Shown here: positions 3,880-41,865 of the stretch, piece after piece
Layout: every line of letters begins with the position of its first letter
How positions within the stretch are numbered: the stretch's first letter is position 1
DNA from: Bacteroidales bacterium
Lineage (GTDB): Bacteria; Bacteroidota; Bacteroidia; Bacteroidales; JAGOPY01
DNA length: 41,865 bases
Assembly (NCBI GenBank): GCA_046484945.1
Contig: JAWOHY010000198.1
Coordinates: 1 to 41,865, forward strand
Reading direction: 5' to 3'
Made by a program: the position numbers and the translations under genes
The notes under the pieces: model-generated
Database searches by the model: none
What the model was told of the DNA's origin: nothing
Seen by the model: the letters and a program-made list of their open reading frames with translations, nothing else

Positions 3880-3890
3880 ATAGCGGAATT

Positions 3891-4051
3891 TTACCAGTCC
3901 GACGACTTAAGCCGTCGATTCCAAATATACCAGGAACCAACGGCTTTAGTCGTTGGAGTAAGAATCTCTTTGGCTTCTGTCGTTGTGGCACAATCCAGAT
4001 CCAGGCAGTAAACCAGGAACCGACAGGTTTACCTGTCGGGAGAATAGTCAA
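3891..4051 (+). mobile_element. Non-autonomous IS200/IS605-like hairpin element (PATE/MITE-like)
   Basis: Three imperfect palindromes at 3900-3917, 3937-3956 and 4020-4039. TTAC at 3891-3894 precedes the first. The last reads GGAA-CCGACAGG-TTTA-CCTGTCGG-GAGAATAG-TCAA, resembling an IS608-type right end. Confidence 0.55.
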
Positions 4052-4094
4052 TCATCTGACGGGTAAACCCCTGCCATTAAAATTAAAAAATGCT

Positions 4095-4102
4095 TACTTT
4101 TG
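4095..4102 (+). promoter_or_regulatory. Bacteroidetes sigma-A -7 element (TACTTTTG)
   Basis: Matches TAnnTTTG, about 25 nt upstream of ATG 4127. Confidence 0.6.
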
Positions 4103-4126
4103 CATTTAGTACAATTTATTAACATT

Positions 4127-7100
4127 ATGAAAAACTTAACTGCGTTTTTTCTTTCCTTACTCTTTGTTATTCAATCATTTGCGAATGACTGGACCAATAT
4201 CCGCTCCGAATATCCCCGGCCGGCTGAAAAAGAACTGCTATCTTCCAATATGGAGATTTCCGTAATCCGGTTTTCCCTTGATGGTTTTCTGACACAAACT
4301 GTGACAACAGCTCTCGGTGAGGCAATGATCATCAGCCTCGACAAAGCCACCCCCATCCTTGAGCAGGGCGCACCCGATCTTCCGAAAATGACTGCCTCGG
4401 TCATCATTCCCGACCTGGCCCGGATGCAGATAGAAGTTACGGAAGCTTCTTACCGCGACTTTGAAAATGTTATCGTGGCACCATCTAAGGGAAACCTCAC
4501 CCGCGATATCGACCCGGCGACAGTTCCTTATGAATTCGGAACTGAATACCAGCAAAACGCTTTCTTTCCGGGAAAACTGGCCGATATGCGCGAACCATAT
4601 ATTATGAGGGATCATCGCGGCCAGACAGTGATCGTGTATCCGTTTCAGTATAATCCTGTCACCAGGACTTTGAGGGTTTATACAGATATTACGGTAAAAA
4701 TCAGCAAGGTTGATGACACCGGCATCAATCCACTGGTCCGTGCGCAGGAACCCGATGTGATCGATGCCCAGTTTCACCATTTGTATAACCGTCACTTTTT
4801 AAACGCCGGAAGTTCCAGCAGATATACACCAGTCAGCGAATTTGGCAATATCCTGGTCATCTCTTACGGGGCCTTTATGAATGCCATGGAACCCTACGTT
4901 CTCTGGAGAAAACAGGTAGGATACCCGATTGAAATGGTGGATGTGGGAACGATTGGCAATTCGACAGCGATTAAATCATTTATCGCCAATTATTATAATA
5001 CCAAAGGTTTGACATTCGTTTTGCTGGTTGGCGACGCCGCCCAGGTACCGACTTCTTCCACCTCGGCCGGGCATTCTGACGTCAATTACTCTTACATTGT
5101 AGGTAATGACCATTATCCCGACCTGTTTGTCGGCCGTTTCTCCGCTGAAAATATCGACCAGGTGAATACGCAGGTGCAACGAACGCTGACCTATGAACAA
5201 AACCCGCCGACAGAAGTAGACTGGTTTACGATCTGCACAGGGATTGCCTCCAACCAGGGGCCCGGAGATGATGGCGAATATGATTATCAACATATCCGCA
5301 ACATTCAGAACAACAAGCTGATCCCCTTCACCTACACTTACGGCAATGAACTGTATGATGGCAGCCAGGGCGGTAATGATGCATCGGGAAACCCGACCCC
5401 CACCATGGTAGCCACTGATGTCAACAACGGCACTGGCATCATCAATTACTGCGGTCATGGCAGCAACACTTCCTGGAGCACATCCGGTTTTTCCAACGGT
5501 GATGTCAATAACCTGGTGAATACAAACATGCTCCCCTTCATCTGGTCAGTGGCCTGTGTAAACGGGAATTTTGTCAATACCACCTGTTTCGCAGAAGCCT
5601 GGCTCAGGGCGACACACAACGGCGAGCCGACAGGGGCCATCGCTTTCCTGGGATCCACCATCAACCAATCATGGAACCCTCCCATGTGCGGGCAGGACGA
5701 AATGAACGACGTACTGGTGGAAACCTATCAGAACAATATCAACCGTACTTTCGGAGCCCTTTCCATGCACGGTTGCATGCAGATGAACGACGAATACGGC
5801 AGTGCCGGTTTTGAAATGACCGACACCTGGACATGCTTCGGGGATCCGAGCGTTATGGTGCGCACCGCCGTGCCACAAGACATGACCGTGATCCATGATC
5901 CGGTCATCTTAATTGGCGCCACACAAATGACCATCCTTTGCGATGCTGAAGGAGGAAGGGCTTCCCTGTCGATCGATGGTACATTGCTCTGTACCGAGAT
6001 CATTCAGGGAGGTTCGGTAACACTCAATTTCACTGCACTGAACAACCCGGGAAGCGTTACACTGACCATTACCGCCTTTAATTACATGCCTTATATCACT
6101 GAGATCGAAGTAATTCCCGCCTCGGGCCCTTATGTCGTCATGGATGCTTATCAGGTAAATGACCCCACCGGCAATAACAATGGCCTGCCAGATTACAACG
6201 AAACAATACACCTGACCATGACAATGAAAAACATGGGTGTCCTTGATGGAACGGATGTCATGGTGATCCTTTCCTCAAATGATCCTTACATTACAATTAC
6301 CGATTACAGCGAACTATTCCCGCTCATTCCCGCCGGCGGAACAGCCACCATCGCCGATGCCTTTACATTTTTTATCGCCAGCGATGTCCCTGACCAGCAT
6401 TCGGTTATTTTCAACCTTACTGCCGATGACGGATCAGACTCCTGGGAAAGTATGTTCATCATGGATATCAATGCCCCCGTCCTGAACATCAACAGCATTA
6501 CAATAAATGACAATTTATACGGTAACGGTAACGGTGAACTTGACCCGGGCGAACGGGCCGACATGACCATCAATTATACCAATTCCGGTCATGCGGTGGC
6601 TTATGATATAGGTGTCTACCTGGAAGGGCGCTCGGGATTTGTTGAAATCATCAATCCCACACAACATTTTAACTCCATTGGCTTCTTTGGGGCTTTTAAC
6701 AAAACCTTCACCGTTACGGTAGATGATGAAGCCCCCGCCGGTATTACCGTCGACTTTGTCAATGAACTGACCATGGGAGATCATTTCCAGGACAGGACCT
6801 TCCCGTTAAAGATCACTGCCAAATGTGAAGATTTTGAGACCGGTGATTTCACCCAATTCAACTGGCAGCATGGTGGAAATCAGCCCTGGCAGATCACCTA
6901 CCAGTACCCATACCAGGGATTTTACAGCATCCGCTCAGGCAATATAACCCACAATGAGACATCAGAGATATGGCTGACCTATGAGGTCATGTCGGCCGAC
7001 AGCATCATATTCATCCGCAAGGTTTCTTCAGAATCGTCAGACCATCTGAAATTTTATATTAACAACCAGTTGATGGGTGAATGGTCGGGTACGACCGGCG

Positions 7101-8050
7101 GATGGAAAAGAGAGGCCTTTGCCGTGAGCGGGGGCATGAAGACCTTCAAATGGGTTTATGAGAAGAATGGCATGGGTAGCGCAGGAACTGACTGTGGCTG
7201 GCTGGATAATATCATATTCCCCTCCCCTATGGTGCTGACCATCTGGGCGGGACCGGATGATAAGGTTTGTTCAGGCGAATCCTATCTGCTGTCCAGCGCT
7301 TACGGGACTGACTATGACCAGGCCGAGTGGAACACTTCCGGCACCGGAACGTTTAACGATCAAAACATCATTAACCCCCAGTATATTCCCAGCGATGATG
7401 ACATCACTGAGGGAGAGGTTCAGCTGACACTGACCCTCTGGGGAGATGGGGGAAACATGGTTTCCGATGAAATGAGCCTGGGGTTCAGGGCTGTGCCGGA
7501 AGCACCGCCCCCCCCCCAGGGCCCGGATTATATCGATGTTTCGGTTACTCAGGTTTCAGAATACCTGGTTACAGGCATTGCCGGAGCAGATGACTATACC
7601 TGGACGCTGGAACCGGATGAAGCCGGCACCATCATCGGGCAGGATACCAATGCCACGGTAAGCTGGAATGCCGGATTCACGGGAACCGCCCATGTCACGG
7701 TCGCGGGTTGGAATGAATGCGGGACCGGACCTGTTTCACCCGCGTTGGAAGTAGTGGTGGATAATACGTTGGTGACTGTTACGGATCCACTTCCTGATGG
7801 TTCATCCATCAAGATATATCCTAATCCTGCTTCCGGCATGCTTCACCTGGAATGGCCAGACTCAACCATCGAAAACATGTCCGTCAGTATTTATGGCCTG
7901 GCGGGCAACATAGTATTTAATCAGGAAAGCGCCAGGACTGCTGGCGGGCAGATCATGACCATCGACCTTACGGCATTCTCGCCGGGGATCTATGTCATCG
8001 CACTAACCGGCAACGGGTCCAGGTTCTTCCAGAAACTGATCATCAGATAA
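4127..8050 (+). CDS. C25 gingipain-like peptidase, Arg-gingipain (Rgp)-like catalytic domain, T9SS CTD
   Basis: Signal peptide MKNLTAFFLSLLFVIQSFA (ATG 4127 preferred to TTG 4100); NYCGHGS and SVACVNG dyad; IASNQGPGDDGEYDYQH resembles the RgpB S1 segment; CTD IYPNP...GIYVI...KLIIR. Confidence 0.9.
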   Translation: MKNLTAFFLSLLFVIQSFANDWTNIRSEYPRPAEKELLSSNMEISVIRFSLDGFLTQTVTTALGEAMIISLDKATPILEQGAPDLPKMTASVIIPDLARMQIEVTEASYRDFENVIVAPSKGNLTRDIDPATVPYEFGTEYQQNAFFPGKLADMREPYIMRDHRGQTVIVYPFQYNPVTRTLRVYTDITVKISKVDDTGINPLVRAQEPDVIDAQFHHLYNRHFLNAGSSSRYTPVSEFGNILVISYGAFMNAMEPYVLWRKQVGYPIEMVDVGTIGNSTAIKSFIANYYNTKGLTFVLLVGDAAQVPTSSTSAGHSDVNYSYIVGNDHYPDLFVGRFSAENIDQVNTQVQRTLTYEQNPPTEVDWFTICTGIASNQGPGDDGEYDYQHIRNIQNNKLIPFTYTYGNELYDGSQGGNDASGNPTPTMVATDVNNGTGIINYCGHGSNTSWSTSGFSNGDVNNLVNTNMLPFIWSVACVNGNFVNTTCFAEAWLRATHNGEPTGAIAFLGSTINQSWNPPMCGQDEMNDVLVETYQNNINRTFGALSMHGCMQMNDEYGSAGFEMTDTWTCFGDPSVMVRTAVPQDMTVIHDPVILIGATQMTILCDAEGGRASLSIDGTLLCTEIIQGGSVTLNFTALNNPGSVTLTITAFNYMPYITEIEVIPASGPYVVMDAYQVNDPTGNNNGLPDYNETIHLTMTMKNMGVLDGTDVMVILSSNDPYITITDYSELFPLIPAGGTATIADAFTFFIASDVPDQHSVIFNLTADDGSDSWESMFIMDINAPVLNINSITINDNLYGNGNGELDPGERADMTINYTNSGHAVAYDIGVYLEGRSGFVEIINPTQHFNSIGFFGAFNKTFTVTVDDEAPAGITVDFVNELTMGDHFQDRTFPLKITAKCEDFETGDFTQFNWQHGGNQPWQITYQYPYQGFYSIRSGNITHNETSEIWLTYEVMSADSIIFIRKVSSESSDHLKFYINNQLMGEWSGTTGGWKREAFAVSGGMKTFKWVYEKNGMGSAGTDCGWLDNIIFPSPMVLTIWAGPDDKVCSGESYLLSSAYGTDYDQAEWNTSGTGTFNDQNIINPQYIPSDDDITEGEVQLTLTLWGDGGNMVSDEMSLGFRAVPEAPPPPQGPDYIDVSVTQVSEYLVTGIAGADDYTWTLEPDEAGTIIGQDTNATVSWNAGFTGTAHVTVAGWNECGTGPVSPALEVVVDNTLVTVTDPLPDGSSIKIYPNPASGMLHLEWPDSTIENMSVSIYGLAGNIVFNQESARTAGGQIMTIDLTAFSPGIYVIALTGNGSRFFQKLIIR

Positions 8051-8084
8051 CAAACGTATTCCATCATTTCAACAGCCATGGGTC

Positions 8085-11000
8085 ATGAAAAATTTCATCG
8101 TCTCCTTTATCGTATTACTATCATTTTGCTTCAACCTGCAAGCCGGTAAGATCGAAATCCTGCCTGGCCGGTCAAATGACCTGAAAATCACCGAAAACAC
8201 CTGGCTCACATTCTCTTTCAGCCATATTGCTGCAGAAATCAGGACGCTGGATGTGAAAGCGGAAGGGAGGGATTTTACACAGCTGCTAATGGCTGGTTAT
8301 TCCAGGACCGGTATCATCGGAAGCCCCGAATTACCCGTCAGGAGGGAATTGCTTGAGGTGCCTCAGAATGCCGTTGTAAGACTGGAGATCACTCAGGCGC
8401 GATATACAGACCTTAACCTGGCGGAACTGGGATATCCTTACCCGGTCATGCCGGTACAGGCCCCCGCCATAAAAAGTGAAGAAAGGCACGACTTTGACTT
8501 TGATCCGGAGGCATATCTTTTAGATGCCTTCACCCCGGGCGATCCGGTGACGTTCGAGATCCTTGGCACCATGCGCAGTTACAGGATCGGACGACTGGAT
8601 ATACACCCCGTTCATTATAACCCTGTGACCCATACGCTGAGGGTATATGACCTGATCGAAGCCAGTATTTACTTTGAGCAGGCCGACATTCCGGCTACCC
8701 TGGCACTGAAAGAAAAGTATGAAAACTTCTATTTCCGGAACATCGGGAATACATTGTTGAACAGCCAGCCACCGGCCGGCCGCGATACGGTTGTCTCTTA
8801 TCCCATTACATACCTGATCGTTTCCGATCCGATGTTCGAGGCGCAACTGCAACCTTTCATCCAATGGAAAACCAAACAGGGGTACCATGTCATTGCCGCT
8901 TACACGAATGATCCCCAGGTCGGCACGTCAACCACTGCCATAAAAAACTACATCCAGGGCCAGTACAATAATCCTGCCCCCGGCAAACAACCGCCATCCT
9001 TCTGCCTTCTGGTAGGAGACATTCAGCAAATCCCGGCCTGGAACGGCGTTGCAGGAAGCCATGTTACAGACCTGTACTATTTCGAATACACGGGCGATAT
9101 CTTTCCCGAAATGTATTACGGCAGGTTCTCAGCCCAGAATACGACCCAGTTGCAGCCGCAAATCGATAAAACCATACAGTATGAAAAGTACACCATGCCT
9201 GATCCTACCTATCTGAATGAAGTGGTAATGGTAGCCGGGATGGATGGTTCCTACGGATATTCCCATGCCAACGGCCAGGTCAACTACGGTACGATCAACT
9301 ATTTCAATACTTCTAATGGCATTTTATCACATACATACCTGTATCCATCATCGGGCGGTCAGTCGGCAGCCATCATCCAGAATATCAGCAATGGCGTCAC
9401 TTATGGCAATTATACGGCCCATTGCGGCCCGAACGGTTGGAGTGACCCCTCTTTTACCACATCCAATATTCCATCTCTGCAGAATCAGGACAAGTATGGA
9501 CTGCTGGTGGGCAATTGCTGCCAGTCGAGCAAATTCAATGAAAATGAATGTTTTGCCGAAGCGCTGCTGAGGGCCGAAAACAAGGGAGCGGTCGGTTATA
9601 TTGGCGCTTCCAACAACACCTATTGGAATGAAGATTATTACTGGGCTGTGGGGGTAGGCCAGATTGCCGAAAACCCGCCTCCTTACGAGGAGACTACCCT
9701 GGGGATGTACGACCGGGCTTTTCACACCCATGGGGAGCCCTGGGAAGACTGGTATGCCACTGCCAGCCAGCATATCTATGCAGGGAACCTTGCCGTTACG
9801 CTGGGCGTTCCCAATTCTTCCACTTATTACTGGGAAGCTTACTGTCTCATGGGCGACCCCTCCCTGATGGTTTATTATTCACAACCACAGGCGATGAACG
9901 TATCCTACATCCCCCTGATGCCATTGAATTCCACTTCATTCACCGTGCAGGCCGATCCATATGCCTATGTGGGAATTTCTCTGAACGGGGAGCTGAAAGG
10001 CGCTGCGCTGGCTGATGCCTCTGGCACAGCCGTTGTGCCGCTGGATCCGATCACCACACCCGGAACGGCGGAGATCGTTGTTACGGCCCAGAACAGGCAG
10101 CCTTTTTTCGGAACGGTCATTGCCGCAAACCCCGAAGGTCCGTTCATCCTGGTCAATGACCACTCCTGGCAGGAACTGTCAGGATATCCCAATAACAAGA
10201 TTGAGCCCGGCGAGGTCATCGGGATAAATATAGAGCTGATCAATTACGGTATGAGCGCCGGGACCGATGTAGTGGCCACCCTCAGTACCATGGACGAGTA
10301 TGTTACCATTACCGACGCTTACGAATATTGCGGAGACATCGGGGCGCAATCGACCCAATCATACCAGAACGCATTTTCCGTCATTATTGCCGATTATGTT
10401 CCGAACGGGCACGAAGTGAAATTCATCGTCACAACCCAGGATCTCTCTCGGGAATCGTGGAGTTCAAACATCACACTGGGATTATCGGCACCGGTTCTGA
10501 AACTGAACAGCCTGACAGTGGATGATAGCCAGGGCGGGAACGGAAACGGCCGGATGGACCCGGGAGAAACCGTGAATCTCATAGCTACCTTTTCCAACGA
10601 AGGAAATGCCATCGGCCGGAATACCGTCGCCAGCCTGACAGCCCACAGCGGGTTTGTCAACATCCTCAACCCTGAGCAAACTATCGGAAATTTACCTTTC
10701 TTTGGAAATACACCGGTCATTTTCCAGGCAGAGATCGACAGTAAAGCGCCCGAAGGGATACTCGCCAATTTCGCAGTTAACCTGGTTTCCGAAGCGTATG
10801 AACTGGATGATATCTGCCCGATGAAAATCGGTCTGATCTGTGAAGATTTCGAAACAGGTGACTTCTCAAAATTTCCCTGGAATCACGGTGGCGACATGCC
10901 ATGGACCATTACAAACGTTTTCCCGCAGCAGGGTTTTTATTGCATACGTTCGGGGAATATAGACCATCTGCAATCCTCTGAAATTTCAGTTCATTACCAG

Positions 11001-12056
11001 GTAATGCAGCCCGACAGCATATCCTTTTACCGGAAAGTATCCTCGGCATCAGGCGACAGGTTGCAATTCCTGATCAACGGGCAGGTGGCCGGAGAATGGT
11101 CGGGGACCATGGGGGGCTGGAAACGGGAGAGTTTTTATGTTGGGGCTGGTAACCGGACATTCAAATGGATCTATATTAAAGATGGCAGTGGTACGGCCGG
11201 ATCGGACGCCGCCTGGATCGATTATATCATTTTCCCGCCAAAAAACGCCACCACCCTTTATGCCGGGGAAGATGCGACCATTTGCACGGCTTTTCATTAC
11301 CAGTGCCAGGGTCAGGCTACCAATTTCCAGTCCGTCAGCTGGAACACCTCCGGAACAGGAACCTTCAATAACAACCATATCCTTACTCCTCAATATACGC
11401 CCAGCAGCGATGACCTGGAAGCAGGACAGGTTGTGCTGACGATGAATATTATCGATAACCAGGGGGAAGCCTTTCATGATGAAATGACCCTTTCTTTTTC
11501 CGATACGCCCGCGCAACCTGATATGCCTGACGGTCCGGAAGAAGTGAACATTGATAACACCTTTGTCAGTGACTATTCGGTCAGTCCTGTGGAAGAGGCC
11601 ATAAGTTACCAATGGATCGTCAACCCGGCAGAAGCCGGGACCTTTGCCGGCACAGGTCCTACCGCAACGCTGGTCTGGAACCGGGATTTCGGAGGTGTTG
11701 CCATGATCGGTGTGGAAGCTGTCAATGATTGCGGGATTGGTCCGGCATCACCGGAATTAATGGTCATCGTGGACAATTCTTCGGTAAAGATCCCTGAAAC
11801 CAGATCCGCTTCCCTGAGCGTGACAACCTATCCGAACCCGGTAACAGAGATGTTATATATCCGGATAAATGGTGAAAGAAATAAAAAGATGGAAATCTGG
11901 CTGGTGAACCTGCTGGGCATGAAAATTGTTACAAAAGAGGTGTACCATACCGGAGAAACGGTCGGGATCCCCGTTGGCCACCTGCCACCGGGAATCTATC
12001 TGCTTTCTGTTGTGTCGGGTGACCGGATGGCCACACGTAAAATAATGATCAGGTAG
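8085..12056 (+). CDS. C25 gingipain-like peptidase, Lys-gingipain (Kgp)-like catalytic domain, T9SS CTD
   Basis: Signal peptide; EMYYGRFSA, QYEKYTMPD, NYTAHC, VGNCC and YWNEDYYWAVG resemble Kgp motifs; CTD TYPNP...GIYLL...RKIMIR. Confidence 0.9.
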   Translation: MKNFIVSFIVLLSFCFNLQAGKIEILPGRSNDLKITENTWLTFSFSHIAAEIRTLDVKAEGRDFTQLLMAGYSRTGIIGSPELPVRRELLEVPQNAVVRLEITQARYTDLNLAELGYPYPVMPVQAPAIKSEERHDFDFDPEAYLLDAFTPGDPVTFEILGTMRSYRIGRLDIHPVHYNPVTHTLRVYDLIEASIYFEQADIPATLALKEKYENFYFRNIGNTLLNSQPPAGRDTVVSYPITYLIVSDPMFEAQLQPFIQWKTKQGYHVIAAYTNDPQVGTSTTAIKNYIQGQYNNPAPGKQPPSFCLLVGDIQQIPAWNGVAGSHVTDLYYFEYTGDIFPEMYYGRFSAQNTTQLQPQIDKTIQYEKYTMPDPTYLNEVVMVAGMDGSYGYSHANGQVNYGTINYFNTSNGILSHTYLYPSSGGQSAAIIQNISNGVTYGNYTAHCGPNGWSDPSFTTSNIPSLQNQDKYGLLVGNCCQSSKFNENECFAEALLRAENKGAVGYIGASNNTYWNEDYYWAVGVGQIAENPPPYEETTLGMYDRAFHTHGEPWEDWYATASQHIYAGNLAVTLGVPNSSTYYWEAYCLMGDPSLMVYYSQPQAMNVSYIPLMPLNSTSFTVQADPYAYVGISLNGELKGAALADASGTAVVPLDPITTPGTAEIVVTAQNRQPFFGTVIAANPEGPFILVNDHSWQELSGYPNNKIEPGEVIGINIELINYGMSAGTDVVATLSTMDEYVTITDAYEYCGDIGAQSTQSYQNAFSVIIADYVPNGHEVKFIVTTQDLSRESWSSNITLGLSAPVLKLNSLTVDDSQGGNGNGRMDPGETVNLIATFSNEGNAIGRNTVASLTAHSGFVNILNPEQTIGNLPFFGNTPVIFQAEIDSKAPEGILANFAVNLVSEAYELDDICPMKIGLICEDFETGDFSKFPWNHGGDMPWTITNVFPQQGFYCIRSGNIDHLQSSEISVHYQVMQPDSISFYRKVSSASGDRLQFLINGQVAGEWSGTMGGWKRESFYVGAGNRTFKWIYIKDGSGTAGSDAAWIDYIIFPPKNATTLYAGEDATICTAFHYQCQGQATNFQSVSWNTSGTGTFNNNHILTPQYTPSSDDLEAGQVVLTMNIIDNQGEAFHDEMTLSFSDTPAQPDMPDGPEEVNIDNTFVSDYSVSPVEEAISYQWIVNPAEAGTFAGTGPTATLVWNRDFGGVAMIGVEAVNDCGIGPASPELMVIVDNSSVKIPETRSASLSVTTYPNPVTEMLYIRINGERNKKMEIWLVNLLGMKIVTKEVYHTGETVGIPVGHLPPGIYLLSVVSGDRMATRKIMIR

Positions 12057-12082
12057 TTATCTGTTTCACTTAATAATGTATA

Positions 12083-13882
12083 ATGAACCGCTCAGTCCCC
12101 GTCATAATCCTGCTTCTTTTCAGCGTTCTTTTCACTTACGGGCAGTTCCGGGTGGTGGATGCAACAAGGATGCAGGTTATGCCTGGTCGGCAATTCATCC
12201 CGGATGTGGAGGGCAAAGTGCTGGTCAGCGATGCGGTCTATGAGCAGATAGAACAGTATGAAACGGGCCAGGTTCCCACGGTTTATCCGCTCTGGCCGGT
12301 ATCAAGGACCGGAACCGTGGAAGAGGGAGGTGTCTGGGGCAATTGTGACAACGATCCGGACCTGGAGATCATTTACGCAGTGGGTAACCAGGTATATGCT
12401 TTTAACAGCAATGGCTCCCTGGTAAGCGGCTGGCCCCGAACGCTCGATTACCCAACCGACGGTGCCCCTGCTTTCGGAGATATCGATGGTGATGGTTACG
12501 GTGAAATCGTGGTAACCACCCACCAGCCCGCCACTTTTGCCGTTGGTTCTATTTATGCTTTCGAAATCAACGGGGCAAACGTGCAGGGCTTTCCCGTCAG
12601 CACTGTCGGCGGCGCGCTCCGCACACCGGTCCTGGCTGACCTTGACGGCGACGGCGCCCTGGAGATCATCGTCACCATCAGGAAACATCCGGAAGGGTTT
12701 ATCCATGTTTACAGGGGCAATGGCACCATGTTCCCCGGCTGGCCCCAGCGGATGGATTATGTACCAGGCTCAGCCGCCGCCGCGGGCGATATCACCGGAA
12801 ACGGTGTCCCGGAGGTTATTGCCCAATCTTACTACGGGCTCCATGCCTTTACCGCCGATGGAATGCTGATGCCCGGTTTCCCCTATTACCCCGGCACCAA
12901 CAGGGTTTTTTCATATTCGACTCCCGTACTGGCCGATATCAACCAGAACGGCCTCCGGGAGATCATCTGCGGCGACCATGCACTGGATTCCGGCAATGGC
13001 GCCATTCATGTTGTCAAAAACGATGGCACAGCCTTTCCGGGCTGGCCCAAATTCACCAACGCCTGGGTTTACGGCCCGCCTTCCGTGGGGGATATCGACG
13101 GTGACGGCCTGCTCGATATTGCCGTCGGCGACCAAATGATCTCCATTACACCGCAAAATAAAGTCTACGCCTGGACCGCTGTTACAAGCAACCCCCTGCC
13201 CGGCTTTCCCATCACCGGCATTTGGGCTGTGAATTCCCAGATCATGCTGGCCGACCTCGATGGCGACGGGATGATCGAACTGATTTTCGATGATAACACC
13301 TCCGTCGGAAAATACCAGGGATACAACCATGATGGCACACCCATGGAGGGATGGCCCCTGTACCTCAACGGCAGTACTTTTTACATCTCCCCGATGATCT
13401 TCGACGTCAAACTCGACGGGATGATGGACATCTCCGGCGCCGGTTATGTACAGGCCACGAATACGACCAATATCTACTTTTGGAATGCCCACGTTGCAAT
13501 GAACAGCGAACTGGCCATACTGCCCATACTGCAGTATAACACAAGGCACAGTGGCGTTTACGGAGATTATCTCATGGTAGGGTCCCCTGAGATCCGACCC
13601 GAACCGGAAGACACCTGGGTTATTTACCCGAATCCGGCCACCACCCGGCTGAATATCAACAGAGCAAATCACGAAGTGAATGGAAATGCCGATGCTGAAT
13701 GGCATATCCATGTTTTCAGCACTGCCGGGAAACTAGTTTATCAAAATTTCATCCCTGGAGGTAATACCTCTCTGGTCGTCCAAACCTCCAGCCTGTCCCC
13801 CGGGGTTTACTGGCTTGTGATCAGAACTGACGGAAAGGCTGCGTATGTGAAGAAATTCATTGTGTTACATCATTCGGGATAA
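12083..13882 (+). CDS. FG-GAP/VCBS repeat protein with T9SS CTD
   Basis: Repeated GWP...P...(G/A)DIDGDG..EI units; signal peptide; CTD IYPNP...GVYWL...KKFIV. Confidence 0.85.
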   Translation: MNRSVPVIILLLFSVLFTYGQFRVVDATRMQVMPGRQFIPDVEGKVLVSDAVYEQIEQYETGQVPTVYPLWPVSRTGTVEEGGVWGNCDNDPDLEIIYAVGNQVYAFNSNGSLVSGWPRTLDYPTDGAPAFGDIDGDGYGEIVVTTHQPATFAVGSIYAFEINGANVQGFPVSTVGGALRTPVLADLDGDGALEIIVTIRKHPEGFIHVYRGNGTMFPGWPQRMDYVPGSAAAAGDITGNGVPEVIAQSYYGLHAFTADGMLMPGFPYYPGTNRVFSYSTPVLADINQNGLREIICGDHALDSGNGAIHVVKNDGTAFPGWPKFTNAWVYGPPSVGDIDGDGLLDIAVGDQMISITPQNKVYAWTAVTSNPLPGFPITGIWAVNSQIMLADLDGDGMIELIFDDNTSVGKYQGYNHDGTPMEGWPLYLNGSTFYISPMIFDVKLDGMMDISGAGYVQATNTTNIYFWNAHVAMNSELAILPILQYNTRHSGVYGDYLMVGSPEIRPEPEDTWVIYPNPATTRLNINRANHEVNGNADAEWHIHVFSTAGKLVYQNFIPGGNTSLVVQTSSLSPGVYWLVIRTDGKAAYVKKFIVLHHSG

Positions 13883-13898
13883 AACAATCATCAAACTG

Positions 13899-16800
13899 AT
13901 GAAAAAACTGATTCTGCTACCATGGCTGTTTATGACCATCGGCATGATCTCCCAGGACATGCCTGATGCTTACCGGCTGTATGTTGAGAAGCACCCGCAA
14001 GGGCCCTCCCTGAACAAATGGGACTCCATCCGCCTGGTGAACGTGCCCGAAAAAACCCTTCCCGGTAACCTGAAAAACAGAACGCTTCCGCCCATCGTCG
14101 ATAACTCCGCATTGCCTTACCTCCGTCCGGTATTTAACCAGGAAGGCCCCAGTTGCGGGCAGGCGGCCATGATCGGATATAATTTTACATACGAAATAAA
14201 TTGCCTTCGGGATCTTTCTTCCCATGATTCAAGCAACCAATACCCCACCCACTTCACATTCAATTTCATGAATGGTGGTAACGGATGGTACGGTGTCAGC
14301 TACTTTCACAGCATAGAAATGCTGAAAGCAACCGGTTGCATGACTGTGCCAGAATACGGCGGGATGCACGATGATGGCCGCAGGTGGATAGACGGTTATG
14401 ATGTATATCATAGCGGCATGCACAACCGGATCAAAGACTTCTACAGTATTCACACCGGGACAACGGATGGCATCCTGGCGCTGAAAAACTGGCTGTACGA
14501 CCATATGGGAGATCAAGCGCACGGCGGTGTGGCCAGCTTCTATGCCAATGTCCCCTGGAATGCCAAAATATTGAACGATACCACACCCGAAGGCGGTAAA
14601 CATGTGATGACAGCCTGGTACCCGGCGGCTACCCATGCCATGACCATTATCGGTTATAACGACTCGATACGGTATGATTACAACGGCGACGGACTGTATA
14701 CCAACCACATCGATCTGAATGGCGACGGGATCATCGATGCCCGCGACTGGGAGATCGGTGGGGTGAAATTCATCAACAGCCATGGCATCGATGCACAGGA
14801 CAGCGGTTATTGCTATATGATGTATAAATGCCTGGCCGAAACCTTTGAAAACGGCGGCGTATGGAACCAGGCGGTACATATCCTTTACCCTTATGAGGAG
14901 TTCTCACCTTTAATGACGTACAAGGTCACCATCAAACATGATTACCGGGAAAAAGTGAAAGTGATGGCCGGGGTGTCGTCGGATACAAGCGACTTAATTC
15001 CCAGGTGGATCATGGACTTTCCCATCATCAATTACCAGGGGGGGGATCACTACATGCAGGGCCAGGACACCGCAGAATACCTGAAATACCTGGAATTCGG
15101 ACTGGATATCAGCCCATTGCTCACACATGTCAGCCCCGGGAATCCTGCAAAGTTTTTCCTGATTGTCGATGAGAATGATCCCTATGGCGAAGGTGACGGC
15201 GAAATCATCTCCTTCTTCCTGATCGATTATACCAGCGGAATGGTGGAAGTCATTTCTGATGAAGTACCGCTGACGCTGCTCAACCATAACCGAACAACTG
15301 CAGCGCTCGTTCATACGCCGGTTTTTGATAAAGTAGCCGTTACCACGGAGGTGCTGCCGGCATTCACAACGGATGACCCCTATCAATTCCAGCTCAATGC
15401 CACCGGTGGCACACCTGCGTATGACTGGACATTTCGGCATTATTACCGGATGGAACAGTCACAGACTTCATTTCCCATGATCATGGACAACCAGGTCCTG
15501 CCTGATACTTCAGGCGACTCACTTGTAGCGATCCCATTAGGCTTTGAATTTCCCTTCTTTGGAAAAAAATATGATACCGTCTATATTCACATTGATGGCC
15601 ATATTCAATTTGACAAAACACAATTGCCCTGGCCTTACCTGTTTGATTACGACCTGCATCTGCGGAGCAATCGTATCATCACCCCGATGACGCACCAAAA
15701 CTTCACCATTTTCGATGATGAGGATGGGGCGTGGTATGAAACAGACTCCATCTCAGCTACCTTCCGGTGGAAATTGTCATGGAGCCCAAAACCCATGTCC
15801 ACAGAGTTTAATTTTGCCGTTAAGCTCTGGCATGACGGCAAAACCGAATTTATATACGGCCCGGCCACCCTGGATGGATTGAAATGGATAGGTGGTATTT
15901 CGGCAGGAAATATGCTGGATTACTTTGAGTCGCCTTTATACAGGTCACATGCCATTTCCCCGGGGCACCGGGTTGCCTTCCTGCCGGCCCGCTTTCCGCA
16001 AGGACTGTCACTCTCGGATGATGGTTGGCTTGAAGCAGAAATGCTGGATGAAACTTACATCTATGACCTGTCGGTGAGGGTGACCGATAAAAACCGTGTC
16101 GCTGATGTAAAAGACTTCCAGTTGTCTTCCGGCCCCCTGGCTTGGTTTACCGTCCATTCTCAGGGCGACAGCCTGATCCATTACGGAGATTCCGTTATCC
16201 TGGATCTCAAATTACGGAATCATGGCGCCCAAACACTCGGGGAACTGATAATGAACATTTCCAGCCATGACGACTTCATCATCTTGCAGGATAGCAGTGT
16301 TGTCATAGGTGACCTGTTGCCCGGGGAGGAGATCATCATCTCTGGTGCTTTTTCTTTTCTGGTATCTGTGGAAGTGCCCGATCAGCATGATCTTTCTCTT
16401 TCGGCGGTATTGCTGTCCGACAGCAGTTCATGGCAAAAAGCGCTTCTTTTCAAAGCCCACGCCCCGGATCTCCGGATCAGGCAGGTAATAGTGGATGATG
16501 GGGATAACAACATCCTGGATCCGGGAGAAACAGCGGATTTCCTGGTCACGCTGCAAAATATGGGAACCGCCGGTATCCATGAAGTGATCGGGCAACTTGT
16601 ATCTCTCAATCCCGAATTGCAGGTATTGGGAAACCCGGTGCAGTCATATGGAACTTTTACAAAAGGCGCCACGATTTCCCGTTCATTCACCCTGTATGCC
16701 GAGGAATCAATACCCTGTGGATTCCCTGCAAAGCTTGTCTTCACCACCGGATCAGAACCCGGGCTTTCTTTCTCTGATACCCTTGAGATAAGGATCGGCA

Positions 16801-17732
16801 AGACGCCCGTCCTGCTGATCGATCTGGATCCAAACACTCATTCGGGCCCCGTGATCCGTGACATGCTGGATGATATGAATATTATCAATGTCTATAGCAC
16901 ATTCATCCCTGAAGGCATTGACCAATTCCAGTCTCTCTTCATCAGCCTGGGATACCACGGTTCGAACCATGTCCTGACATGGCATGAAGGCAGGGTGCTG
17001 GCAGATTACCTTGATGGCGGGGGCTATATTTACATGGAAGGGAAAAAGACCTGGAAAGACGACCCACAGACCCCTGTGCACAGCCGCTTCAACATTACCC
17101 CTTTGAATGGCGTTACCCTTTGCGATACCCTTTCCGGATCGGAAAATACATTTACCCATGGTATCCGTTTACTGAACAATGCCGAATTTCCGTTCAGTTT
17201 TTATTACCTGGACCCTATCTCACCCGCCTATGCCGTTCTGCACAATGGCTTACAGGGCAGGCCCTGCGCCGTTGCCCATGATGCAGGCTTTTTTAAAACT
17301 ATCGGATCGCTCTTTGAACTTGGTACACTCGGCGATCTCCCCCCTTCTACCACCTCAGAATTGCTGCAGCGATACCTGGATTTCTTCGGCATCTATGTCA
17401 ACCCAACCCGTATCGATGAAATCACCAGAGAAGCAAACGATTTTTCCATCAGCATTTACCCAAATCCTGCGAAACAGATAATTAATGTCAGCTTAGATTT
17501 AACGGCTAACGGCAAACGGCTAACGGCAAACGGCAAACGGCAAACGGCAAACGGGCAAACCTCGCTCATCATCACCGACCTCTTCGGCCGGACTCTGATG
17601 CAAATTCAAAATGTACAAAGTTTCCCCTTCCCGATTAATGTTTCATCGATCCCTGACGGATTACATATTATCCAGTTGATAACCACAGACGGGCAATCGG
17701 CTTCGGCAAAATTTATTAAGACTTCAGATTAG
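13899..17732 (+). CDS. Papain-like (C1) cysteine peptidase, multidomain, T9SS CTD
   Basis: NQEGPSCG (oxyanion Gln and catalytic Cys), HAMTIIGY (His), FINSHG (Asn); DDGDNNILDPGE Ig-like domain; IYPNP CTD. ATG 13899 gives a signal peptide. Confidence 0.82.
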   Translation: MKKLILLPWLFMTIGMISQDMPDAYRLYVEKHPQGPSLNKWDSIRLVNVPEKTLPGNLKNRTLPPIVDNSALPYLRPVFNQEGPSCGQAAMIGYNFTYEINCLRDLSSHDSSNQYPTHFTFNFMNGGNGWYGVSYFHSIEMLKATGCMTVPEYGGMHDDGRRWIDGYDVYHSGMHNRIKDFYSIHTGTTDGILALKNWLYDHMGDQAHGGVASFYANVPWNAKILNDTTPEGGKHVMTAWYPAATHAMTIIGYNDSIRYDYNGDGLYTNHIDLNGDGIIDARDWEIGGVKFINSHGIDAQDSGYCYMMYKCLAETFENGGVWNQAVHILYPYEEFSPLMTYKVTIKHDYREKVKVMAGVSSDTSDLIPRWIMDFPIINYQGGDHYMQGQDTAEYLKYLEFGLDISPLLTHVSPGNPAKFFLIVDENDPYGEGDGEIISFFLIDYTSGMVEVISDEVPLTLLNHNRTTAALVHTPVFDKVAVTTEVLPAFTTDDPYQFQLNATGGTPAYDWTFRHYYRMEQSQTSFPMIMDNQVLPDTSGDSLVAIPLGFEFPFFGKKYDTVYIHIDGHIQFDKTQLPWPYLFDYDLHLRSNRIITPMTHQNFTIFDDEDGAWYETDSISATFRWKLSWSPKPMSTEFNFAVKLWHDGKTEFIYGPATLDGLKWIGGISAGNMLDYFESPLYRSHAISPGHRVAFLPARFPQGLSLSDDGWLEAEMLDETYIYDLSVRVTDKNRVADVKDFQLSSGPLAWFTVHSQGDSLIHYGDSVILDLKLRNHGAQTLGELIMNISSHDDFIILQDSSVVIGDLLPGEEIIISGAFSFLVSVEVPDQHDLSLSAVLLSDSSSWQKALLFKAHAPDLRIRQVIVDDGDNNILDPGETADFLVTLQNMGTAGIHEVIGQLVSLNPELQVLGNPVQSYGTFTKGATISRSFTLYAEESIPCGFPAKLVFTTGSEPGLSFSDTLEIRIGKTPVLLIDLDPNTHSGPVIRDMLDDMNIINVYSTFIPEGIDQFQSLFISLGYHGSNHVLTWHEGRVLADYLDGGGYIYMEGKKTWKDDPQTPVHSRFNITPLNGVTLCDTLSGSENTFTHGIRLLNNAEFPFSFYYLDPISPAYAVLHNGLQGRPCAVAHDAGFFKTIGSLFELGTLGDLPPSTTSELLQRYLDFFGIYVNPTRIDEITREANDFSISIYPNPAKQIINVSLDLTANGKRLTANGKRQTANGQTSLIITDLFGRTLMQIQNVQSFPFPINVSSIPDGLHIIQLITTDGQSASAKFIKTSD
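17500..17555 (+). repeat. Eight (T/A)AACGGC heptamer units inside the C1 peptidase CTD coding region
   Basis: taacggc taacggc aaacggc taacggc aaacggc aaacggc aaacggc aaacggg; translates as LTANGKRLTANGKRQTANG. Confidence 0.95.
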
Positions 17733-28205: not shown

Positions 28206-28238
28206 GAATTTTGAATTTTGAATTTTGAATTTTGAATT
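28206..28238 (+). repeat. GAATTTT heptamer x4.7
   Basis: gaatttt x4 plus gaatt, directly after the receptor stop codon. Confidence 0.92.
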
Positions 28239-28609: not shown

Positions 28610-28613
28610 TCTC

Positions 28614-28964
28614 AGTGTTGAGGTTTAGGGTTTAAGGTTTAAGTTCGGGAATTTTTTTAACAGAGTGGGTATATTTTTCATTTTTCTGGATTAATAGATA
28701 AAATCCATGAATTATGAAAGAAAGTATTGTTGGTGGTAAAGCATATTTTTATACAATGAGTATTATTCCGCTCTATCAAAAAATGTTACAACTTTCAAGA
28801 CCTTCTCAAAGAGATCGATGAAATCATTAAAATGCTAACAAAAATTGTTAAAACCACAAAATCTCAAGAAATAAAATAATAGCCCGAACCTAAACCTTAA
28901 CCCTTAAACCTCAACACTTTAAAATATTCCCCCACTTAAACCTTAAACCTTAAACCTTAAACCT
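28614..28964. mobile_element. Repeat-flanked four-helix-bundle cassette 1 (defective)
   Basis: 36-bp inverted arms 28614-28649 and 28883-28918 (33/36) made of GGTTTAA units; extra (CTTAAAC)n array about 28935-28964; AT-rich interior carrying a gene remnant. Mobility is inferred, not shown. Confidence 0.65.
28714..28879 (+). pseudogene. Internally deleted four-helix-bundle (23S rRNA IVP family) gene
   Basis: ATG 28714 gives MKESIVGGKAYFYTMSIIPLYQKM (family N-terminus). The +1 frame gives FQDLLKEIDEIIKMLTKIVKTTKSQEIK* (family C-terminus). The central Q..RS..S..AN..E core is missing. Confidence 0.75.
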
Positions 28965-28965
28965 A

Positions 28966-39206: not shown

Positions 39207-39269
39207 CAAAAACAAAAAACACGAAACAACAAACACGAAACAATAAACACGAAACAAGAAACCAGATAC
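39207..39269 (+). repeat. ACGAAAC/AAnAAAC alternating heptamer array
   Basis: caaaaac aaaaaac acgaaac aacaaac acgaaac aataaac acgaaac aagaaac cagatac. Confidence 0.88.
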
Positions 39270-39293: not shown

Positions 39294-40226
39294 ATGCAAA
39301 AACCAATTAAAAAGATCGATTACGGCGAACTCCTGGAAGTCCTCAGGCACTACGACACCGAATCGATCTTCGACAAGGTCAACGTGATCCCCGATAGCGA
39401 AGACCTGCACGAAGCGATCTCGGAATTGATCAACCTCCGCTCCTTTGCCCGGCGATCAGTGCTGGGTATCGACATCTACCGCTATGGGATGTACAAACAC
39501 CTTGAGCAGGTGCTCATCCCGCCCCTATATAAAATCCTCTTTGAAAAAGCCATCCGGCTCTGCCTCGAAAACAACCAGTTCATCTTCCAGCGATATACAA
39601 AGGAAAAGATCGAAAATTCCTTCATCAGCACCGGCGACGGGGGATTTGTGATCTTCGACACACCATTGCACTCCCTGTTCTTCGCCATCAACTTCGAAAT
39701 GGTCGTCAGGGCTTATAACTCCTACCATCTTTTCCCGAAATTGAGGAATATCATTGGCAGTATCAGTTTGCGCTATGCCATCAGCTATGACACCGTCTTC
39801 CATTTTGACGATAATTTTTACGGCAGCGCCATCATCAACAATGCCCGCATCCTCGATAAAGACACCCTCAACCGCTGCCTCATCGACCAGCAAACATACG
39901 ACTGGTTCCTCATCAGCATCGACGGGCTGGAAAACCTGCAGATCCTTTCCATTGAGGAGATCGCCAATATATTCGATTTCCTTGATTATGACCGCAGTTT
40001 GCTTGACAAGGGCGAAAATGAAATTCTCGATAACAACACTTCCCGCCGGACAGGGATCATCAACTCAGACATTCTGAAAGTCGGCCAGATTCAATCGAAA
40101 CAAACACTCATTAACATCTACAACCTGCACCTGCAAGTCACAGCCCGCATCTATTCCGACCGGAAAGTGGAGAACAAGCGGACGATTACCGTAAGCCTGG
40201 GGAACCTTAATACGAGTGGGATTTAG
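39294..40226 (+). CDS. Hypothetical protein with class III nucleotidyl-cyclase-like motifs
   Basis: VLGIDIYRYG, STGDGGFVIF, LRYAISYD, YGSAIINNARI; own promoter TATCTTTG at 39272-39279. Confidence 0.6.
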   Translation: MQKPIKKIDYGELLEVLRHYDTESIFDKVNVIPDSEDLHEAISELINLRSFARRSVLGIDIYRYGMYKHLEQVLIPPLYKILFEKAIRLCLENNQFIFQRYTKEKIENSFISTGDGGFVIFDTPLHSLFFAINFEMVVRAYNSYHLFPKLRNIIGSISLRYAISYDTVFHFDDNFYGSAIINNARILDKDTLNRCLIDQQTYDWFLISIDGLENLQILSIEEIANIFDFLDYDRSLLDKGENEILDNNTSRRTGIINSDILKVGQIQSKQTLINIYNLHLQVTARIYSDRKVENKRTITVSLGNLNTSGI

Positions 40227-40233
40227 TTGTTGA

Positions 40234-40891
40234 AATGTTGTATGTTGTATGTTGTATGTATTATTTAATAAGGATTTGATAATAAGACAATTATCATAAA
40301 CTTAATACATATCACATAATACATACCACATACAACATCTTTCAGTCGTCTTTACGCCGCATCACTATTTCTTCTGGCGGTGTTTCTTGTTGCCATAAAA
40401 ATAGCGATCAACTCCTTGCATTCCACTAATTGGTTTTGCAGAACTACTGGGTCTTTACACAATTTCGCTTCCTCAACAACCTCAAGATTAACCTCAGTTT
40501 CTTTTAGCTCTTTCACAACAAGTCCGATCTTATGAATAAAATCTTTTCTTGTTTCTGCCATTTGTGCTTCGCCATAATTTAAAGCTGCTGAAGTTGAGGA
40601 CCTTACCATTTGCATGTAAAGATGCCTGGATGCAAAAACGGGTTTAAGAATTTGGTCAATAGAAACTATCCTGGCAGAAAACTGCACAAGCCTTTTTTGT
40701 AATTGCGTCTTCATACTATTCTTTCTCTGTTAATCAGGAAAGAAGCTGAAATATACCCGGTGATTTTGAAAAAAAATTAGGACTGTGGTATGCATGATGT
40801 GATATGTAGTATGTGATATGTAGTATGTGGTATTTATTAAGTATTTTAAATCCTTATAAAATACTACATACCACATACTACATACAACATT
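40234..40891. mobile_element. Repeat-flanked four-helix-bundle cassette 2 (intact gene)
   Basis: Nested inverted arms of TATGTnG heptamers: outer 40234-40277/40848-40891 (40/44) and inner 40300-40338/40804-40842 (34/39). Mobility is inferred, not shown. Confidence 0.7.
40352..40714 (-). CDS. Four-helix-bundle protein (23S rRNA intervening-sequence protein/Avd-like family)
   Basis: 120 aa; QMVRSSTSAALNYGEAQ...SRKDF-like TRKDFIHK...KELKET family signature. Confidence 0.92.
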   Translation of the reverse strand: MKTQLQKRLVQFSARIVSIDQILKPVFASRHLYMQMVRSSTSAALNYGEAQMAETRKDFIHKIGLVVKELKETEVNLEVVEEAKLCKDPVVLQNQLVECKELIAIFMATRNTARRNSDAA

Positions 40892-40902: not shown

Positions 40903-41865
40903 TCATTTAACCCTAACCACTATCTTCCGCCAGTCGGGCCTCTCCCACGCCACAACCATCTCGCGGAACTTCTCCATATCCTCAGTTGAGATGATATTTG
41001 ATTGTAATTCCCAGGATCGCTTGATGGTGACGGTTTTCCCCCGCTGCATGATCTTGATCTCCATGTCGCCGAGGGTGTTTTTCACGAAAAAATCAGCCGG
41101 CGGGGTAACAAGTTCCCATCCGTCAGGCAATTCGATCTGGATGGAATAGCTCTCCCACAATTGATGGTCAAGTTTTACGGGGGTGTTGTCAGAACCAGTG
41201 AACTGGACAAGGTTCCAGGCATCGAATCCTGTTCTGTACCGGGGTAGTTCAATGGCGGTATAACCGCTGTAATCGGTTTTTAATGGATGAGATGCTAAAT
41301 TCACTTCCGTCCTGGCTTTCAGTTCCGTCAACTGGCCTTGTTTTACCTGCGTTGTCTGACCAGTGTTAATATCCCCGGTGATCATGGATTTCACATGCTC
41401 TCCATCCTTGTATAACCGTAAATAAGGGTTCGCCATTCCTTCCATGCGCAAGTCGAGTTTGCCGGAAAGGTTTCTCTCTGCGTCGATCTCAAGTTTCGCA
41501 TCCATCTGGAGAATATGATCGGCCCGCTTTTCCTGGAACGTGCGCATCGATTCCACCGCACCATCCAGTTGGATCATCGTTTTATCATCCAGGTTATAGA
41601 TCAGGTTCTGCGACTGCTTCCGGTTAACCGAAAGGTACATCCGGCCCGATTTTTTCGGGTTGACCTGTACCAGGAATCCGTCGAAAACGGCCAGGATGCC
41701 CAGCTCCCTGCTGAACCAACCGTTCGGAACAGTGGCCACAGGAGTGGCGTTGATATTGGCCATGATCAGCATCTCCGAAAGCAGGATAGCCTTTTCCAGC
41801 GATGTTGCGTTGGCGCTCTGCCACACTTCCCTCGGGGTCCGGACTTTGTACCCGGTATGGGCCAG
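40903..41865 (-). CDS. C-terminal part of a DUF3857/transglutaminase-like/DUF3858 protein (5'-truncated)
   Basis: Frame stays open to the window edge (LAHTGYKVRTPREVWQS...EKAILL); C-terminal IELPDGW...KNTLG beta domain typical of this family. Confidence 0.65.
   Translation of the reverse strand: MAHTGYKVRTPREVWQSANATSLEKAILLSEMLIMANINATPVATVPNGWFSRELGILAVFDGFLVQVNPKKSGRMYLSVNRKQSQNLIYNLDDKTMIQLDGAVESMRTFQEKRADHILQMDAKLEIDAERNLSGKLDLRMEGMANPYLRLYKDGEHVKSMITGDINTGQTTQVKQGQLTELKARTEVNLASHPLKTDYSGYTAIELPRYRTGFDAWNLVQFTGSDNTPVKLDHQLWESYSIQIELPDGWELVTPPADFFVKNTLGDMEIKIMQRGKTVTIKRSWELQSNIISTEDMEKFREMVVAWERPDWRKIVVRVK

Follow-up and report, generated by a model that had tools for sequence, protein, structure and literature searches.

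Intervening sequences (IVS) in the 23S rRNA of Leptospira and Coxiella carry an ORF of the S23p/four-helix-bundle family, which was first recognised there, inside a stem of terminal inverted repeats; they are AT-richer than their host, sporadically distributed and, by the literature, about 430-760 nt long. To our knowledge no function has been established since 1993 for the IVS ORF or its "orphan" relatives, and we know of no catalytic activity for the four-helix-bundle fold. Avd and Xcc0516 are described as basic pentamers that bind nucleic acid. The IVS passages of PMC4990558 describe a 28-bp terminal stem that is cut by RNase III and refer to older suggestions that the IVS is left over from a transposition or is itself a mobile element with a mobility ORF. 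In the corresponding parts of PMC3936711, 18 genes of the family are located inside cas operons and RxxxSxxxNxxE is given as the conserved core motif of the proteins, and a passage of PMC10053308 notes the resemblance of Avd, a protein of diversity-generating retroelements (DGRs), to the PF05635 family. Dispersed repeats form a further point of comparison. RAYT genes of the REP/REPIN system are single small genes bracketed by a dispersed intergenic hairpin repeat, with one gene per repeat family. Heptanucleotide LSSRs such as GGGAATC of Xanthomonas are intergenic tandem 7-mers, often arranged as convergent inverted pairs near or overlapping stop codons (passages of PMC4692102, and of PMC4679880 citing Mrazek 2007), and according to a passage of PMC4679880 no long simple repeats are commoner in prokaryotes than heptanucleotide tandem repeats, which it ascribes to polymerase slippage. 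Eukaryotic foldback transposons (FB, Tetris) have long inverted repeats at their termini, composed of short tandem units, and many of their copies consist of arms only (PMC4079207, in part).

The locus described here lies in a window of 41,865 nt, the whole stretch of DNA that was analysed, which is contig C29 of the genome of an uncultured Bacteroidales bacterium (3.08 Mb, 273 contigs, 94.6% complete; G000). At the other end of the window, positions 1-17732 hold four very long ORFs of ~1290-1320 aa each, all in the same direction. Two convergent stops are separated by 676 nt, taken up by a 105-nt hairpin, a minus-strand ORF, a 69-nt spacer and a 108-nt hairpin. The left neighbour (39294-40226, plus strand, 310 aa) has no Pfam match and is conserved across the genus, and the right neighbour (40903-41865, minus strand) encodes a DUF3858 C-terminal domain and runs off the window. 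An earlier note on this DNA had placed the element next to a stop codon on either side, which was borne out, but its distances of 8 and 12 nt were each one too large, the gaps being 7 nt on the left (TAG 40224-40226 to 40234) and 11 nt on the right (40891 to the stop at 40903-40905). The left foldback repeat (40234-40338) consists of an outer arm (40234-40277) and an inner arm (40300-40338) with a small inner palindrome in the loop, and is positioned 3' of both the left neighbour and the four-helix-bundle gene. This gene (40352-40714, minus strand) is intact and encodes 120 aa plus stop. Ahead of it lie a promoter-like motif (40730-40758, minus strand; GGGTATATTT-N-CTGATTAA), a minus-strand run of 8 T (40769-40776) that immediately follows the right hairpin, and the right foldback repeat itself (40784-40891; inner arm about 40797-40842, outer arm 40848-40891).

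Heptamer arrays on both strands at each end, local hairpins at each end and matches across the ends had all been described before, and all were recovered. The unit TATGTNGTATGTNGTATGT was matched 13 times in the window with up to 2 mismatches, against 0 matches in 100 shuffles, and all 13 are confined to 40234-40339 and 40796-40891. Each end can fold on itself (40235-40283 with 40290-40338, 49 nt, 80%; 40797-40826 with 40861-40890, 30 nt, 90%). The outer arms 40234-40277 and 40848-40891 are complementary at 91% over 44 nt and the inner arms 40300-40338 and 40804-40842 at 87% over 39 nt, and these cross-end matches include ATAAGGATTT and ACTTAATA. Predicted folding of single ends gave -35.6 to -40.9 kcal/mol (z -4.2 to -6.7), equalled by 0 of 200 shuffles, whereas in the predicted fold of the 675-nt minus-strand RNA (MFE -201.7 kcal/mol, z -10.3) the two outer arms pair with each other, as do the two inner ones. 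Identity of the left end to the right end is 74.8% when the latter is reverse-complemented and 67.9% when it is read directly, which favours an inverted orientation only modestly. The claim that the ends are true terminal inverted repeats is weakly supported by the match between the outer arms, but in relatives of the window paralog the two hairpins are mostly direct copies and the orientation of the loop is a fragile marker. The cassette is indeed AT-richer than its flanks, its GC content being 0.336, as compared with 0.481 and 0.510 for the flanking genes and a genome-wide value of 0.485. A domain search found no transposase within the element, and an Rfam search of the region (E up to 1) returned sub-threshold microRNA-hairpin look-alikes only and no rRNA. 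A sigma-70/terminator scan, which is unsuited to long AT-rich hairpins and to Bacteroidota promoters, gave nothing above shuffle level.

The family assignment of the gene was confirmed by PF05635 (38.4 bits, cut-off 33.8) and TIGR02436 (61 bits, cut-off 24), and 2rld_A is a solved four-helix-bundle relative by sequence (E 2e-9, residues 7-111). The residues R38, S42, N46 and E49 constitute the RxxxSxxxNxxE core of the window protein, which has a pI of 9.2, and Q35, N46, E49 and E72 were invariant in an alignment of 17 paralogs. The orthologue in the congener G005 is identical at 85 of 120 positions, including a 39-residue identical block; dN between the two genes is 0.22 with dS saturated, which together with the identical block points to a working gene. 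The source genome yielded 20 PF05635/TIGR02436 matches, all solitary, and the paralog proteins are 14-42% identical to the window protein. In a sample of 81 Bacteroidota the family was found in 67, at 0-20 copies per genome, and among the control genomes Bacteroides thetaiotaomicron gave a TIGR02436 score.

As an architecture, the locus mirrors the 23S IVS as the earlier note had proposed: the protein family is the same, the arms are inverted, the predicted minimum free energy structure is a long enclosing stem and the length of 658 nt is within the range of IVS. It differs in that it is located between two protein-coding genes and not in a 23S rRNA helix (9, 25 or 45), in that a promoter-like motif lies inside the arms, and in that the arms are self-folding tandem heptamers of a dispersed repeat family; processing is known for the IVS only. 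Because the motif is inside the arms, the 5' arm would be missing from transcripts of the gene itself, and the stem would form only in read-through RNA. With RAYT genes the likeness is one of layout only, as the bracketed window gene is PF05635 and not PF01797 and has no HUH/Y1 motifs, and the window repeats are tandem heptamers and not the fixed palindrome of REP. A specific gene family is bracketed here, in contrast to the LSSRs, for which the passages of PMC4692102 and PMC4679880 mention no associated gene and in which "S23" and "four helix" occur 0 times. FB and Tetris are eukaryotic, with a transposase that is different or unknown, and no homology to them is implied. To the DGRs the window gene is linked by the related fold and family of Avd, but it is accompanied by neither a reverse transcriptase nor a TR/VR pair. 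As regards an IS or MITE, the arms are TIR-like, but the element has no transposase and inspection by eye revealed no target-site duplication.

The TATGTnG hairpin is also found elsewhere in the genome. Nine complete copies are present, two at this locus and the others on contigs C5, C23, C88, C137, C143, C184 and C186, besides 5 one-armed arrays. Eight of the nine are situated at most 16 nt from the stop of an ORF of 90 or more codons pointing at them, and the ninth at 46 nt. The cassette had been taken for the full form of the element, in agreement with the 7 solo complete copies and the one-armed arrays elsewhere, as a gene is bracketed only at the window site. No TATGTnG repeat was present near the other 19 family genes of the genome.

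The flanking genes are syntenic on both sides in seven congeners (G003-G009), and the search for an empty site that the earlier note had suggested was positive: at this intergenic site G004 and a metagenome contig have a single hairpin without a gene. G004 is the closest congener (flanks 92% identical), its single hairpin belongs to the same family, and no orthologue of the window protein was found anywhere in its genome, the best match being 45% identical. Among assembled contigs from four DNA runs, a sediment metagenome contig with a depth of 12 has position 40320 joined to 40873, leaving one hairpin without a gene, and the joint falls inside the repeated arms and has 6 ambiguous letters. 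The gene itself was present on low-depth contigs from that run. The one-hairpin form was bridged twice and is solid, and no single metagenome contig spans a hairpin of the filled form. At this site G005 has three 529-nt units, each composed of hairpin, T-run, promoter and gene, with 0 differences among them and a fourth hairpin closing the series, and its genes are oriented opposite to that of the window. G003 has two stops 5 nt apart, and G006-G009 have one hairpin each, built of a different short unit; the unit in G007, TTTACAG, also flanks G007's own relatives of this paralog. These comparisons show that a unit was gained or lost at the window site through the hairpins. On the assemblies as they stand, the unit was also multiplied and possibly inverted, G000 and G005 being short-read MAGs in which copy number and orientation between ~100-nt quasi-palindromes are prone to misassembly. 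Between these two genomes the cassette has 72% nucleotide identity and the flanking genes have 78% and 67%; since the divergence of the cassette about equals that of its flanks, this copy is long resident at the site and not a recent arrival. Comparison of filled and empty sites by eye revealed no target-site duplication.

The bracketed layout is a hallmark of the four-helix-bundle family. Arms were scored by local alignment of the upstream arm with the reverse-complemented downstream arm, for which 300 random positions gave a 99th percentile of 11.5, and counts of shared 7-mers were set aside as a weak statistic (null 95th percentile 10). Inverted arms with scores of 19-62.5 were present at 16 of the 18 testable paralog loci of the source genome (from 20 matches); the test failed only for a 173-aa variant on C64 and for a degraded copy on C54. 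For every paralog the arms are tandem repeats of a different unit of 7-11 nt, among them AAGGTTT, TTTTGAA, GAGTTYT, GGTTCTT, GTTCAAA, TAGGGCG, GCATGGGG and GAAGAGGG. In the clade of the window paralog, each end is mostly a whole hairpin and not a simple array, and the two are usually direct copies. Complementarity and the 7-8-nt periodicity of the arms are thus kept while their sequence is not, which suggests that the arms work through structure. In a Bacteroidota sample with one locus per genome, 19 of 29 loci passed the arm test and 10 were without clear arms. Five of eight loci passed in Neolewinella marina MKG-38 and three of four testable loci in a Gemmatimonadales MAG (3 partial loci excluded), and in Saprospiraceae and Chitinophagales relatives arms are visible by eye in the flanks. 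An unbiased scan of the source genome for inverted 9-mer-rich blocks yielded 72, of which about 15 have a gap of 420-540 nt and correspond to four-helix-bundle genes, about 40 are solo hairpins and about 6 surround ordinary genes. At 14 of 16 loci of the source genome and 18 of 19 of the phylum sample, the upstream (5') arm is rich in G and poor in C and the 3' arm the opposite; as an inverted repeat has the same polarity on both strands, this G>C bias is uninformative on gene orientation.

Other paralog elements occupy different loci in different congeners. In none of the five congeners searched did the syntenic site carry the C137 or the C183 element; the 15-150 nt present there include arm remnants, other hairpins or nothing, and whole-element homologues with arms were found at other loci in G003, G004, G007 and G008. 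The window itself contains a second four-helix-bundle cassette at about 28612-28965, with AAGGTTT-type inverted arms and the shared promoter motif but with the middle of the gene deleted; it is a copy of the C137 element (11640-12240), which is intact. A solo TTTTGAA hairpin in G003 retains TTCGG-AATTATTAA, the stretch found between arm and promoter in full elements, and such solo hairpins therefore look like deletion derivatives. At the C137 locus (L003/L070/L074 in G000, G004 and G008), the upstream gene differs between species in its last codons and stop, which are supplied by element ends or remnants, and in G004 and G008 the upstream ORF terminates in ...GTGTTGAGGTTTAA, a remnant of the arm.

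The motif upstream of the gene, GGGTATA[TA][AT]T-N6-18-GA[TA][TA]AA, has 41 sites genome-wide, including 40730-40758 (minus strand) and 28667 (plus strand) in the window. It precedes 14 four-helix-bundle genes or remnants, 3 Y1_Tnp genes and 2 PDDEXK_3 genes, as well as ssb, recJ, radC, comEC and comEA-like, comF-like and comM-like genes; further motif-bearing genes are topA (type IA topoisomerase), nth (endonuclease III), a RecQ-like helicase, an HTH_3+S24 repressor and a sigma-70-family gene. We read the shared motif as a putative promoter/operator. The Bacteroidota -7 element is a TAnnTTT box, and the box of the shared motif fits it. The motif-bearing genes look like a single DNA-uptake and repair regulon. 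The shared motif differs from the one published for LexA of Bacteroidetes. The right hairpin with its T-run resembles an intrinsic terminator, which would be that of the DUF3858 gene. A layout of hairpin, promoter, gene and hairpin is common to the Y1_Tnp and PDDEXK_3 genes of the source genome. The four Y1_Tnp (RAYT-like) genes (C41:7140-7870, C63:20350-21320, C215:1-900 and C146:7096-7740) each adjoin their own GC-rich REP-like hairpins, with the shared motif at three of them, and the two PDDEXK_3 (GxxExxY-type) genes (C184:5724-6104 and C171:1607-1981), which also have the motif, lie between inverted arms or hairpins.

Tandem arrays are dense in this genome. In its 3.08 Mb, TRF detected 912 arrays with periods of 5-16 that do not overlap, 529 of them of period 7 and 158 of period 8, and about 21 fall within the 41.9 kb of the window, where hardly an intergenic region lacks one (e.g. 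28206-28238, 39210-39266 and 17501-17560). Six of the seven commonest unit families, with 51, 31, 28, 26, 26 and 24 arrays, flank exactly one paralog locus each, and one of the six also has a deleted cassette copy. Abundant families without a paralog in the assembly are AAACAAG (31 arrays) and AAACACG (19). Counts in five congeners are rough, since matches in flank genes and unrelated ones are among them, and the five genomes are related to one another: among the matches listed, GAGTTYT occurred 37, 46 and 17 times in congeners with the element and 7 and 3 times in those without it, TTTTGAA 51 and 43 times with and 17, 9 and 7 times without, and TAGGGCG, the element of which is absent in all five, 8, 3, 2, 1 and 1 times versus 26 arrays in the source genome. 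One set of array counts was left out because its query carried an unrelated REP-like repeat. The remaining counts are suggestive of array number tracking the presence of the cognate element across congeners; an exception is G004, with at least 6 TATGTnG hairpin loci and no cognate gene. A separate REP-like hairpin family with the core GACGACTAAAGCCGTCGG has 48 exact copies in the source genome (C79:5280-6300, C139:60-420, C217:9420-9960 and C137:11480-11640), and hairpins with this core are very abundant in G004 also.

On balance, we consider it probable that the locus is a recombining, self-insulating cassette akin to the 23S rRNA IVS but outside rRNA, the arms of which act through structure. 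The cassette would consist of a four-helix-bundle gene with its own promoter between two foldback copies of ~105 nt, and would belong to a widespread class. The hairpin and 8-T run ahead of the promoter would stop transcripts of the DUF3858 gene from running on, and the four-helix-bundle transcript would end at the far hairpin, so that the insertion would be transcriptionally insulated. Any read-through RNA could form the long ORF-enclosing stem and might be processed by RNase III in analogy to the 23S IVS, and removal of the stem would render the insertion harmless at any landing site. Harmlessness wherever the element lands would fit the cas operon genes reported in part of PMC3936711. Movement and rearrangement would proceed via recombination between the foldback arms, and no recombinase encoded by the element was seen. 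The basic, probably pentameric protein would bind nucleic acid, plausibly its own repeats. Several observations weaken this reading: such inverted arrays, built of the same units, are found around about 6 ordinary genes as well, at a density of 912 arrays in 3.08 Mb some association of genes with arms would be due to chance, and clear arms are missing at 10 of the 29 phylum loci.

The presence of hairpins at sites without a gene could be explained differently if the arms derived from the target. The arrays would then be host or independent 3'-end features, and promoter and gene would land in hairpin loops or be copied between arrays of the same family by homologous recombination, for instance after DNA uptake. 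Such an origin would agree with the solo hairpin of G004, which resembles the window left arm plus loop plus right outer arm, with the unrelated solo hairpins of G006-G009 at the same site, with the solo hairpins that make up about 40 of the 72 inverted blocks, with the metagenome joint and its 6 ambiguous letters within repeated arms, and with a promoter motif that the four-helix-bundle genes have in common with comEC, comEA, comF, comM, ssb, recJ and radC. We nevertheless think it unlikely, as genes of one type keep the same arms at unrelated loci and in different species (C137 and 28612-28965; the G007 and G008 matches), and as solo hairpins that retain the arm-to-promoter sequence (G003, TTCGG-AATTATTAA) fit deletion derivatives better than virgin targets. 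An ordinary small gene caught between independent terminator-like or REP-like hairpins of two convergent neighbours is disfavoured and very unlikely. TATGTnG hairpins do follow stop codons wherever they are found, and nearly every intergenic region of the window has arrays (about 21 in 41.9 kb), but mere neighbourhood does not account for matched inverted arms above the random 99th percentile at 16 of 18 own and 19 of 29 phylum loci, for the single hairpin of gene-less sites or for the hairpin repeated with every gene unit in G005. That same G005 series, hairpin-gene-hairpin-gene-hairpin-gene-hairpin, recalls an integron, with hairpins as attC-like structure-specific sites for a recombinase encoded elsewhere, and so do the 90-110-nt size of hairpins that vary in sequence and keep their structure and the one hairpin left at the empty site. 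However, the cargo is always of one gene family with its own promoter and a hairpin 5' of the gene, inspection by eye revealed no attC core-like motif, and most paralogs end in simple inverted arrays and not in hairpins, all of which makes an integron-like cassette highly improbable. The resemblance of Avd to PF05635 (a passage of PMC10053308) would allow the gene to be the Avd of a DGR remnant, a reading with next to no probability in view of the missing template/variable repeat pair and of 20 paralogs that are all solitary, and it was rejected because the source genome, 94.6% complete, has 0 RVT_1 matches.

The match between paralogs and repeat units raises another possibility, namely that each four-helix-bundle paralog is a master gene that recognises its own repeat unit and drives its birth and spread, as a RAYT does for REPINs, with the window cassette as the master copy of the TATGTnG hairpin family. 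Consistent with this are the one paralog locus in each of six of the seven commonest unit families, congener array counts for GAGTTYT, TTTTGAA and TAGGGCG that follow the cognate element, the syntenic solo hairpin of G007 that shares TTTACAG with the arms of its paralog relatives, the RAYT-like genes of this genome with the same layout and promoter motif, and the character of Avd and Xcc0516 as basic, nucleic-acid-binding pentamers. A fold without known catalytic activity is difficult to reconcile with such a role, as are the TATGTnG hairpins of G004 without a cognate gene and the abundance of AAACAAG and AAACACG without a paralog. The match counts are moreover impure and the congeners not independent, and a gene that merely needs arrays to hop would give an identical correlation, so that we regard master genes as a rather doubtful explanation. 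Equally tentative is a joint reading, in which 23S-IVS/Avd-like four-helix-bundle proteins would be the master genes of intergenic heptanucleotide repeat families in many bacteria: an oligomer with about 7-8 nt per subunit might recognise and propagate its own unit, the arms would yield the self-insulating recombining cassette, and the classical 23S IVS would be the same element in an rRNA helix.

An IVS-like cassette outside rRNA, recombining through its arms, remains the reading that we prefer. IVS with an ORF and inverted ends are known, as are, from the relevant passages of PMC4692102, heptanucleotide arrays including inverted pairs by stop codons in Xanthomonas. What is new, as far as could be found, is the connection of the gene family with repeat arms as cassettes outside rRNA; a full-text literature search, covering few subscription journals, returned no paper that links the family to tandem-repeat arms or to bracketed cassettes outside rRNA. 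In the cautious reading, these loci represent small gene cassettes of a widespread class, the ends of which are defined by structure. The cassettes reshape the 3' ends of genes and alter the C-termini of their neighbours; they also disrupt short-read assembly and can be confused with repeat systems of other kinds. Beyond that, two old puzzles may meet here, the ORF family of the IVS, for which we know of no established function, and the heptanucleotide tandem repeats, and if the gene family and the repeats are truly two halves of one system, both puzzles would become testable.
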